From Coleofasciculus sp. B1-GNL1-01 (lineage in GTDB: Bacteria; Cyanobacteriota; Cyanobacteriia; Cyanobacteriales; Coleofasciculaceae): DNA of 64,000 nt. Positions 60,408-63,059 of this stretch are shown here, in pieces. The notes beneath the pieces are model-generated. The model did no database searches. It worked only from the letters and a program-made list of their open reading frames with translations, and was not told the DNA's origin. Position numbers and translations under genes: made by a program. The stretch lies in the NCBI GenBank assembly GCA_040220235.1, contig JAVJTO010000031.1. One strand, 5' to 3'. The number at the start of each line of letters is the position of its first letter. The first letter of the stretch is position 1.

Positions 60408-61250
60408 TCAAGCTGACACAGCCGCTAAACTGGCTGGGATTTTTCGCCCGACGGCGGCGGCGACGGGGTGTAAGCTGTGAACCAACTGCACCATATCGTC
60501 TAACGATAACGCTTGACGGGCATCCGATACGGATTTTTCCGGTTCGGGATGACACTCGATGATTAATCCATCCGCACCTACTGCGACAGCCGCTTTCGCC
60601 AACGGGGAAATTAATTCCCGTTTGCCCGTGGCGTGGGAGGGATCTACAATCACAGGCAATGAAGTCATCTGCTTAAGTGCCACAACTGCTCCCAAATCTA
60701 AGACATTCCGGGTATAAGTATCGAAACTGCGAATCCCTCGTTCACACAGTACCACCTGAGAATTCCCATGACTGAGAATATATTCGGCTGCCATAACGAA
60801 TTCTTCTAGAGTCGCCGCTAATCCCCGCTTCAGCAGAATCGGTTTATCAACTTGACCCAAGGCTTTGAGTAAATCAAAGTTTTGCATATTACGACTGCCT
60901 ACCTGAAGCATATCAGCATGGGCAGCCACTAACTCGATTTGGGTAATGGACATGACTTCCGTCACCACGGGAATCTGATGACGCGATCGCACCTGGGATA
61001 ATATCTCTAGTCCCTCTACCCCTAAACCTTGGAACGAGTAAGGAGACGTGCGAGGTTTGAAAGCACCGCCGCGTAACGCCTGAACCGGGGCGCGTTGCAG
61101 TTGAGTGGCGACGGTTTCCATCTGCGATCGACTCTCCACCGTACAAGGACCAGCAATTATCACCAGTTCCTCACCCCCGAAAGTGATATGATTCGACAGA
61201 TGAACCAAAGTTGGGCGATCGGATTGGGTGGCAAGTGTAGCATTCACCAT
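60408..61250 (-). CDS. aroF: DAHP synthase (type I-beta), catalytic barrel only
   Basis: IAGPCTVES, RGGAFKPRTSPYSFQG, GSRNMQN, LLKRG, CERGIR, DPSH, SDARQ; AAAGG SD before ATG 61250. Confidence 0.95.
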   Translation of the reverse strand: MVNATLATQSDRPTLVHLSNHITFGGEELVIIAGPCTVESRSQMETVATQLQRAPVQALRGGAFKPRTSPYSFQGLGVEGLEILSQVRSRHQIPVVTEVMSITQIELVAAHADMLQVGSRNMQNFDLLKALGQVDKPILLKRGLAATLEEFVMAAEYILSHGNSQVVLCERGIRSFDTYTRNVLDLGAVVALKQMTSLPVIVDPSHATGKRELISPLAKAAVAVGADGLIIECHPEPEKSVSDARQALSLDDMVQLVHSLHPVAAAVGRKIPASLAAVSA

Positions 61251-61283
61251 CAGACTAATTCCTTTAAACAATGAGTGGACAAT

Positions 61284-61315
61284 AAAAAAACCCGGTTCCT
61301 TGTGGGTTCCGGGTT
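61284..61315 (-). terminator. Attenuator terminator 2 (proximal to aroF)
   Basis: Minus strand AACCCGG-AACCCACAAGGAA-CCGGGTT followed by a T run. Confidence 0.8.
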
Positions 61316-61340
61316 CTGAGAAAATTTAACGCAGCATCAC

Positions 61341-61409
61341 CTACCCGGAACTGCTTCCGAACCAAAAAAAGTAAAACAAGGTAAACCAGTGATTCAGGTA
61401 GGTTGTCAT
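61341..61409 (-). CDS. Aromatic-rich leader peptide 2: MTTYLNHWFTLFYFFWFGSSSG
   Basis: Manual translation; AAGGAG SD; 9 of 22 residues are F/Y/W. Confidence 0.85.
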   Translation of the reverse strand: MTTYLNHWFTLFYFFWFGSSSG

Positions 61410-61421
61410 CAGATACTCCTT

Positions 61422-61457
61422 AAAAAACAAAAAGACCGCAGCTTTCGCTCTGCGGTC
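61422..61457 (-). terminator. Attenuator terminator 1
   Basis: Minus strand GACCGCAG-AGCGAAAG-CTGCGGTC-TTTTTGTTTTTT. Confidence 0.85.
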
Positions 61458-61486
61458 CACCGGGGAGGTTCCATGAGGAACTCTGC

Positions 61487-61543
61487 TCACCTCCGGTGAA
61501 CCTCCGTAAACCAAAAATAAAAGTAGTTGTTGCAGTTGAGCAT
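61487..61543 (-). CDS. Aromatic-rich leader peptide 1: MLNCNNYFYFWFTEVHRR
   Basis: Manual translation; six consecutive aromatic codons YFYFWF. Confidence 0.8.
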   Translation of the reverse strand: MLNCNNYFYFWFTEVHRR

Positions 61544-61590
61544 AGCTGAGGGCTTTTTATGAAACGTTAATTAGATGCCTGTTACTGGAC

Positions 61591-61619
61591 ACGATAGCAA
61601 GCTGTTGTGGCTAAGTCAA
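61591..61619 (-). promoter_or_regulatory. Sigma70-type promoter for the aroF leader
   Basis: TTGACT-N17-TATCGT with extended -10 TGn, about 47 nt upstream of leader 1 ATG. Confidence 0.65.
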
Positions 61620-61867
61620 TACCTGATCTGGATCAAGTTTCTGTTTTCCACGGGTGTGATCATGCACCTGGGGGAGCTGGGGGAGCTGGGGAAGCTGGGG
61701 AAGCGGGGGGAGGATAAAGTTATAGCACTTCTCGATTGGGTGCAATACACCTTGGTAGAGACAGGGTGTGGGGTGTGGGGTGTGGGGTGTAGGGTGTAGT
61801 GCTTTCAAATGAGAACCGCTATATATCTTTGAATGCAACTTGGTATAAAGTACAGTCTATCCAAGCA

Positions 61868-61900
61868 AGATCCCCGACTTCTTTGAGGAGTCGGGGATCT
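61868..61900. repeat. Palindromic element AGATCCCCGACT...AGTCGGGGATCT; relatives near 20170 and 54025
   Basis: Inverted repeat with degenerate copies elsewhere in the window. Confidence 0.7.
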
Positions 61901-61949: not shown

Positions 61950-63059
61950 ATGAACCTAAATTTAACCGAACATACCGAAGGCAATGCCACATTTAAAATT
62001 GGTAATGCGTTTTATCGCCCAGGGACGCAAGTGGTGCGAGATTTAGGCATTTTAGCCGCAGCAATTTATAAGTTTCAAATCGGTCACTTACGAGTAATTG
62101 ATGCGATGAGTGGCTGTGGAGTGCGTTCTCTACGCTATAGTTTGGAAAGTCAAGCCGATTGGATCTGGGTGAATGAGGGAAATCCTGAGCTTAACCCGAT
62201 TCTACAGCAAAATTTAGCAGGCGCGATCGCCAGCCATAAAGCTACCCTTACCCATCTCGACGTTAATCAGGTCTTTTTTGAGTGCTATAACCGTCGAGAT
62301 TACTACGATTTCATCGATGTGGACTGTTTCGGTTCCCCTACTCCCTATCTGGATACCAGCCTCTGGGCGCTGAAACTAGGGGGACTTCTTTATCTCACCA
62401 GTACCGATGGGCGTAAACTAACAGGTCATGCTTCAGAAAGCAGTTTGGGGATTTATGGGGCGTATCCCCGCAACCATCCCGCCGCCCAGGAACAAGGATT
62501 GCGAGTGGTGATTGGTAAACTTCAGCAGCAAGCCATCGCCAAGGGTTTGGGGATTGAGCCGATTTTCTCCCTGTTTACGGGTCAAACTTACCGCCTAATG
62601 GTACGTTTGGTCAAAACCCAGCCGTTGACGCTGCAAAATTACGGATTTTTGGGTTATTGTCATCACTGTGGTAATTATCAAACTGTGTCTTGGCGTCAGT
62701 TAGGGCGTGTGGTTTGTGCTTATGACCAAAAATCCCTGACCCTGAGTGGTCCGTTGTGGCTGGGATTGTTGCATAATCAATCTTGGTTAAGACAGATGCA
62801 GGGATTAGCTCAAAAGTGGCACTGGTCAAAACGGGTACAACTCCTCAGCCTCATGGAAGCAGAAGCCGATTTCCCGCCCTACTTTTATACCTTGGCGGAA
62901 ATTGGACGCCGAGGGCGTTTGGATATCCCAAAACGAGAGTATCTGATTCAGGCGTTGCGCGATCGCGGATATTTCGCCTGTGCCACTCATATTACACCGG
63001 GAGCGATTAAAACCAACGCCGATATTCACACTTGTATCGCTGTTGCGATAGACCGATAA
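61950..63059 (+). CDS. Trm1-like tRNA (guanine-N2)-dimethyltransferase
   Basis: AFYRP...RDL, DAMSGCGVRSLRY, DVDCFGSP, TSTD, CHHC, GPLWLG, TH...IKTNA. Confidence 0.8.
   Translation: MNLNLTEHTEGNATFKIGNAFYRPGTQVVRDLGILAAAIYKFQIGHLRVIDAMSGCGVRSLRYSLESQADWIWVNEGNPELNPILQQNLAGAIASHKATLTHLDVNQVFFECYNRRDYYDFIDVDCFGSPTPYLDTSLWALKLGGLLYLTSTDGRKLTGHASESSLGIYGAYPRNHPAAQEQGLRVVIGKLQQQAIAKGLGIEPIFSLFTGQTYRLMVRLVKTQPLTLQNYGFLGYCHHCGNYQTVSWRQLGRVVCAYDQKSLTLSGPLWLGLLHNQSWLRQMQGLAQKWHWSKRVQLLSLMEAEADFPPYFYTLAEIGRRGRLDIPKREYLIQALRDRGYFACATHITPGAIKTNADIHTCIAVAIDR

Follow-up and report, generated by a model that had tools for sequence, protein, structure and literature searches.

Among the closest described counterparts of the element reported here is the aroR-aroF system of Corynebacterium glutamicum, in which an aromatic-codon leader peptide likewise precedes a DAHP synthase gene and stalling raises transcription (Neshat et al. 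2014, as summarised in PMC11802643). According to this summary, the actinobacterial leader is a single Phe-Tyr-Phe unit on which Phe acts and Tyr does not, whereas the locus described here, compared by description, has two serial units with codons for Phe, Tyr and Trp. The enterobacterial trpL, pheL and pheM leaders, which the same source names, also combine a leader ORF carrying cognate codons with an overlapping antiterminator and an intrinsic terminator, but they are single units devoted to one amino acid and one branch, and unit 1 of the present locus is without their 1:2 helix. A uORF and a terminator upstream of aroF have been predicted in Acholeplasma (motif uORFC-13-1); this is a single unit from the Tenericutes with Phe codons in a U-run, and the excerpted text of PMC8632094 describes no Trp/Tyr run. 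Two uORF-based attenuators within one leader are found in the mgtCBR operon of Salmonella, where, in the passages of PMC3641672 that deal with them, mgtM and mgtP act additively on separate signals (ATP and proline), whereas here the same three codon types recur and each unit has its own intrinsic terminator.

For cyanobacteria, a survey of 2016 stated, in the part available, that there were no reliable data on attenuation (PMC4833913). The small ORF sml0012 upstream of the shikimate-pathway gene aroQ of Synechocystis has been suggested to encode an attenuator peptide, but it is 45 aa long, belongs to another gene and was suggested to act on translation only, and neither a terminator nor an aromatic run is described in the accessible part of that preprint (bioRxiv 10.64898/2025.12.20.695498). 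No cyanobacterial report of the present element was found in the open full-text literature, as far as its accessible text goes (PMC1173090 included; subscription journals and preprint supplements lay largely outside this search), and a search of PMC4734099 for terms relating to aroF, leaders and attenuation gave no hit. What appears to be new here is thus a tandem arrangement, predicted to respond to three amino acids and built on intrinsic terminators, in front of an enzyme without a regulatory domain, in a phylum for which no reliable precedent was found. The sequence comparisons presented below make it highly probable that a two-stage, ribosome-mediated transcription attenuator governs an extra, presumably feedback-free DAHP synthase.

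Layout of the aroF leader region

The window, i.e. the whole stretch of 64,000 nt from contig JAVJTO010000031.1 of Coleofasciculus sp. B1-GNL1-01 (assembly GCA_040220235.1), carries the element at positions 61251..61619. An initial annotation had placed a promoter, two leader ORFs, an AAGGAG motif, two terminators and aroF on the minus strand of this region, and all are present there:

61619-61614 (TTGACT) and 61596-61591 (TATCGT), minus strand: candidate sigma70-type promoter with a 17-nt spacer; TG ahead of the second box gives an extended -10
61487..61543, minus strand: leader ORF 1, MLNCNNYFYFWFTEVHRR and stop, 18 aa, with the aromatic run YFYFWF at 61525-61508
61493..61502, minus strand: antiterminator 1, 5' arm, GGTTCACCGG, within the last leader codons E-V-H-R
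61454..61463, minus strand: antiterminator 1, 3' arm, CCGGTGGACC, of which the final 5 nt double as the base of terminator 1
61422..61458, minus strand: intrinsic terminator 1, 9-bp stem at 61458-61433 and U-run at 61432-61422, -15.3 kcal/mol
61416..61421, minus strand: AAGGAG ahead of leader 2, present in this genome, without conservation
61341..61409, minus strand: leader ORF 2, MTTYLNHWFTLFYFFWFGSSSG and stop, 22 aa
61393..61403, minus strand: unit 2, candidate segment 1, within codons 3-6; predicted at some of the loci, from folding and from complementarity to its own partner
61343..61351, minus strand: antiterminator 2, 5' arm, GTTCCGGGT, last codons S-S-G and stop
61306..61314, minus strand: antiterminator 2, 3' arm, ACCCGGAAC, forming 9 perfect pairs with the 5' arm and identical with the 5' arm of terminator 2
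61284..61316, minus strand: intrinsic terminator 2, stem at about 61316-61288 followed by a U-run, imperfect here
60408..61250, minus strand: aroF, short type I-beta DAHP synthase, 280 aa, ATG at 61250 and SD AAAGGA at 61265-61260

In this genome terminator 2 contains a 2x2 A/A internal loop and was missed by a stock terminator scan; its folding energy is -13.3 kcal/mol versus -14.8 kcal/mol for its antiterminator. A scan with Rfam covariance models returned no Trp, Phe or His leader, T-box or riboswitch, and its four weak, unrelated matches were far below gathering score. A possible coupling device, a 21-aa ORF (61474-61409) whose stop lies across the start of leader 2, was rejected, since its counterparts in relatives differ in frame and length.

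The surroundings of the element were also inspected. Upstream of the promoter, short tandem repeats on the minus strand (CTTCCCCAG/CTCCCCCAG and CACACCC types) occupy window positions 61665-61715 and 61765-61795; repeats of this kind are common in filamentous cyanobacteria, and related strains have other letters in their place. A perfect inverted repeat, AGATCCCCGAC...GTCGGGGATCT, lies at window positions 61867-61900 between divergent genes, and contig depth suggests that it occurs in high copy elsewhere. The divergent neighbour (61950-63059, plus strand) encodes a Trm1-like tRNA N2,N2-dimethylguanosine methyltransferase (TIGR00308, below cut-off).

Conservation of the units and their leaders

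Taken alone, the window has three promoter-like and two terminator-like sites in 1.3 kb, which is not above shuffled sequence (means 1.6 and 1.2), and it is conservation that lifts the observation above chance. The short enzyme was matched at E<=1e-90 in 148 of the 401 genomes of the class, and upstream DNA was taken for 130 of these 148; five loci were left out of the count, two with less than 600 nt of flank and three being long-form genes. A strict motif classifier was dropped because it missed variant leaders, and a motif-free rule was used in its place, by which a unit is a short ORF (8-50 codons) that carries an aromatic cluster close to its stop and is followed by a hairpin and a U-run. 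By this rule at least two units lie upstream of the short aroF at 116 of 125 class-wide loci and one unit at the other 9, whereas 375 base-shuffled copies gave two units in none and one unit in 2; as with all conservation counts given here, the genomes are kin and the loci not independent. The set of 80 titled loci, which overlaps the class-wide one, gives a similar picture, with two units at 72 of the 76 loci that have enough flank and one unit at 4 (two units in 0/228 shuffles). Upstream of leader 1, a TTGAC-N18/19-TA...T site is present at 100 of the 116 loci and in 0/116 control stretches.

The association with the short gene is specific. Upstream of long-form genes the same rule found no unit at 29 loci (the best 30 of 78 matches in 121 genomes, one being dropped for its short flank). 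A pattern made for unit 1 occurs once per genome in 43 of the 401 genomes, compared with three matches for its reversed control, and wherever the position of aroF is known it is directly upstream of the short gene (19/19); it had no match in the sampled genomes outside the class. An amino-acid-agnostic scan covering 6600 long ORFs of the 8.66-Mb genome, which asked for a rich leader, a terminator and an overlapping antiterminator under a strict rule that weak cases would escape, yielded two candidates, and these are the present units. A looser, aromatic-only scan gave 62 matches among 1242 aromatic short ORFs; single units therefore do arise by chance with some frequency, and the argument depends on where the units lie and on their conservation.

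The exceptions are of use as well, since loci with a single unit provide natural comparisons of what each unit does. Among the nine class-wide cases, unit 1 of L193 lies beyond the 600-nt search window, and L189 and L200 retain a degenerate unit 2. Unit 1 alone is found at L197, L203, L206, L207 and L211 (family f33), of which L197, L203, L206 and L211 belong to the nine, and unit 2 alone at L007/L053, L043 and L204, of which L007 and L204 do. In two Calothrix loci (L058:2800-2935 and L060) leader 2 has lost its stop codon and extends over 44 codons, reading through terminator 2; this natural variation can be expected to alter the logic of unit 2. At a close Coleofasciculus locus (L033:1-260) unit 1 seems to be displaced by an unrelated insert just before leader 2, unless the contig is chimeric. 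Both units were also seen in two records (L107 and L110) titled Proteobacteria MAG and Candidatus Obscuribacterales, with enzymes about 70% identical to that of the window; transfer, old inheritance or mis-binning may account for this.

The consensus of leader 1 is about M-x5-YFYFWF-x-x-VH-x-x and that of leader 2 about MT-x3/4-WFYGFYFW-x4-SG, each followed by a stop. An in-frame ATG stands 14-26 codons ahead of the stop at 114/116 loci for leader 1 and 104/116 for leader 2, and ATGs in frame outnumber those out of frame by 123 to 9 and by 126 to 26, respectively. A leader SD with at least four matching bases is found at only 11/116 leader-1 and 13/112 leader-2 starts. Phe, Tyr and Trp are all represented in 112/116 of leaders 1 and 108/116 of leaders 2. 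Codons -12 to -7 comprise TTY 321, TTR 2, TAY 184, TGG 121 and TGY 0 in leader 1 (696 codons) and TTY 326, TTR 1, TAY 140, TGG 93 and TGY 1 in leader 2, figures that are partly circular because the units were chosen as aromatic-rich ORFs.

Leader length is conserved, 64 of the 116 leader-1 loci having their ATG at codon -18, and the C-terminal V-H and S-G are near-invariant, which could also point to nascent-peptide arrest sensors, TnaC-like or of the antibiotic or general-stall type, which would respond to free ligand or translation stress instead of uncharged tRNA. We consider this very unlikely, since F, Y and W interchange freely inside the run, the N-terminal residues vary and the gene governed encodes the first shared step towards just these three. 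Moreover, V-H and S-G are written with nearly single codons (GTT 99, CAC 97 and GGG 99 of 116) and constitute the antiterminator arm, so that the constraint acts on the RNA.

The choice of Phe codons is also unusual. UUU makes up 335/364 (92%) of them in leader 1 and 380/452 (84%) in leader 2, compared with 128/345 (37%) in sampled coding parts of aroF and 73% over the whole genome. The only tRNA-Phe anticodon found is GAA, of which UUU is the wobble-read codon, as is expected of a starvation sensor. An RNA-binding protein or a small RNA acting on the resulting U-rich tracts, or NusG-type pausing there, could throw the switch instead, in which case the ORFs would be by-products, but the bias also fits wobble reading by the only Phe anticodon found, and the in-frame ATG enrichment, the restriction of third positions to TTY, TAY and TGG and the fixed codon spacing to the arm can be explained only by translation. 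The probability of such a factor is put slightly lower still than that of peptide arrest.

Helices, folding and the proposed switch

Covariation was examined in alignments of every second locus (58/116), with structures drawn from the sequence of the window and sequences that are kin, both of which favour the test. Under these conditions antiterminator 1 has 93.9% of cells paired and two-sided changes at 6 of 10 pairs (41 such changes, shuffled mean 16), terminator 1 has 99.4% paired and two-sided changes at 6 of 9 pairs (20, shuffled mean 2), antiterminator 2 has 89.8% paired (29, shuffled 9.9) and terminator 2 has 90.5% paired (41, shuffled mean 14). For all four helices the covariation score was reached by 0/500 shuffles, and slid registers were at most 61% paired versus 90-99%; for antiterminator 2, the two measures that count pairs did not exceed shuffles (136 and 201 of 500). 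An antiterminator helix of at least 7 bp can be formed in unit 1 at 114/116 loci and in unit 2 at 107/116. The mutually exclusive antiterminators that the initial annotation had claimed for each unit are thereby confirmed, their pairing arms being located and covarying. It had also held that a lack of aromatic-codon conservation in relatives would speak against its reading; conserved aromatic-codon uORFs and covarying stems are found upstream of aroF, with the aromatic runs, the arm spacing and all four helices retained.

Co-transcriptional folding was modelled with the transcript cut before the 3' arm of the terminator and a ribosome masking to +12 from the P site. For unit 1, placing the A site on codons -10 to -8 left the antiterminator formed in every one of the 58 loci, and placing it on -6 in 9%; for unit 2, positions -10 to -6 gave an antiterminator in 98-100% of the 57 loci and position -3 in 11%. 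The run ends at -7 in both units. Footprints of +10 or +14 moved the switch point by about one codon. The antiterminator thus survives, in folding models, only with the ribosome on, or just past, the aromatic run, and a ribosome on the run frees the arm that one at the stop covers. Full equilibrium agrees for unit 1, where the terminator is present in 30-47% across loci at codons -11 to -8 and in 92-97% afterwards, and weakly for unit 2 (63-75% of 116 loci on the run versus 98% past it), although the terminator measure rests on a stem picked automatically; the two units of this window did not switch in the full-equilibrium model. Since terminator 2 is often favoured at equilibrium, read-through must be kinetic, with the antiterminator forming first.

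That terminator 2 prevails at equilibrium in most loci, and that tandem terminators would lower basal expression regardless of the ribosome, might suggest that the units are constitutive dampers holding an unregulated enzyme low, or independent small-RNA or small-peptide genes whose peptides act in trans. A damper has no use for a covarying antiterminator inside the end of an ORF, and the leaders are found only in cis to the short aroF; we regard this as the least probable of the alternatives considered.

Leader-peptide attenuation mediated by the ribosome, as first proposed for this locus, is therefore preferred, being supported by uORFs with end-product codons, terminators, overlapping antiterminators and ribosome geometry. 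Judged at the sequence level, the element has every feature of a leader-peptide transcription attenuator and is real and widely conserved. When charged tRNA-Phe, tRNA-Tyr and tRNA-Trp are plentiful, the ribosome would reach the leader stop and mask the antiterminator arm, RNA polymerase would stop at about 61425, and polymerases escaping terminator 1 would be caught at about 61285. When any of the three is short, the ribosome would stall 3-4 codons short of the arm, within the aromatic run, the antiterminator would form first and the polymerase would read through. Each leader may in this way sense all three amino acids, although at C. glutamicum aroR, by the summary cited above, Tyr did not act in spite of its codons being present; termination at the leaders would presumably take place in vivo, and the two units may simply multiply. 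As aroF would be made only when both are passed, a lower basal level and a sharper response can be envisaged. Tandem T-boxes and tandem riboswitches follow the same serial logic without using a ribosome.

Several observations bear on expression. The use of intrinsic terminators fits the absence of Rho in cyanobacteria, as stated in the relevant part of PMC13613805. A pause letting the ribosome catch the polymerase was not identified here, which, like the weak or missing SD sequences of the leaders, counts against an attenuator, and transcription-translation coupling in cyanobacteria is not documented in the available portions of PMC7858274 and PMC10895346. The RNA runs examined (4 of the 20 listed) all consist of assembled contigs. 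Two of these, X6 and X3, have a flat depth (about 430 and 350) that continues upstream of the promoter, so that DNA carry-over is possible; in X9, a piece of 151 nt (61416-61566) ends just past terminator 1, at a depth of 3.9 and a length of about one read. These RNA data do not enter the case made here. A term search of 10 supplementary files of one Nostoc proteogenomic study (PMC8557916) did not find the leader peptide motif.

The two units do not behave identically in the models. In the absence of translation, the antiterminator of unit 1 forms in 57/57 loci and there is no 1:2 helix. That of unit 2 forms in 32/52 loci, compared with 42/52 when the 5' part is shuffled, and is absent in this window, where segment 1 (61393-61403) is predicted by folding to pair with 61350-61339 as an anti-antiterminator. 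The duplex between the leader-2 start and the antiterminator arm is more stable with the locus's own partner than with those of other loci (-14.3 versus -11.3 kcal/mol; 0/2000 permutations), a result that could be inflated by shared GC content within a genome. The arm is sequestered in unit 2 in 36/104 loci versus 32/208 shuffles, about a third at equilibrium, and in unit 1 in 8/114 loci versus 41/228 shuffles. Segment 1 was among everything upstream that was masked in the stalled-ribosome folding.

Because the start of leader 2 is predicted to pair with its own stop region, untranslated unit 2 would often be closed, and since this further helix is often predicted in unit 2 and not in unit 1, the units do not appear to be plain duplicates. 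With less certainty, unit 1 is predicted to have three segments and to be open when untranslated, and unit 2 often to have a fourth and to be closed, which may be likened to super-attenuation at trpL. Four-segment architecture is that of the enterobacterial trpL, pheL and pheM attenuators. Tentatively, and with more doubt than confidence, we suggest that unit 1 opens on an aromatic stall or without a ribosome, and unit 2 on an aromatic stall only, remaining shut if initiation fails. If true, the pair of units would tell aromatic starvation from a general shutdown of translation (night, nitrogen loss).

The short DAHP synthase and the meaning of its proposed control

With a match to TIGR01361 above cut-off, the aroF product belongs to the type I-beta DAHP synthases; its nearest titled records are from Coleofasciculus (95-97% protein identity). 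It covers only positions 77-336 of the 338-position model NF006421 and consists of the catalytic barrel with the KPRTS motif, without the N-terminal regulatory extension; the best-matching solved structures are chains of 262-276 aa. The missing part is presumably the regulatory ACT-like domain. Short DAHP synthases of this type are feedback-insensitive, and AroF, as a DAHP synthase without the N-terminal regulatory domain, is likewise predicted to be feedback-free.

Elsewhere in the genome a second DAHP synthase of the long form is encoded, with an N-terminus longer by about 80 residues and 49% identity to the short one, and a type II enzyme was found in 0/5 genomes. Where the usual long form is absent, the short enzyme could have been the sole DAHP synthase, but this was rejected, as the four complete or near-complete genomes of this kind that have the short form carry 2-3 PF00793 genes each. 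A search for a conserved downstream operon gave 52 same-strand downstream ORFs in clusters of at most three, for which reason aroF looks monocistronic. L208 and L209 (family f38) have yet another DAHP synthase, a divergent third type of long form that shares 46% identity with the one usual in cyanobacteria. It is preceded, at about -230 to -130 from its start, by a single, different leader (MKNSQFWYSFTFRSATGVRHRSG / MKISQYWYSFTFRSATEVRHRSG) and then a strong terminator, which may together be an aromatic attenuator independent of the present one.

In the proposed mechanism, control at the RNA level would substitute for the allosteric feedback that the short AroF cannot receive. An RNA-restrained, feedback-free enzyme beside a conventional regulated paralog suggests on-demand flux into the aromatic amino acids and the pigments derived from them. 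For engineering, removal of the leaders should free a native, feedback-free DAHP synthase from regulation, and the leader itself could act as a sensor of three amino acids. With a class-wide element of intact switch geometry, attenuation in cyanobacteria becomes testable with a 370-nt reporter, as does the question whether cyanobacterial ribosomes keep up with RNA polymerase. If the tentative division of labour between the units is true as well, the entry of the shikimate pathway would have a conserved two-stage ribosome gate, with different jobs for the two stages, placed on a feedback-free bypass enzyme, and this gate would offer a first means of studying directly how transcription and translation are functionally coupled in cyanobacteria.
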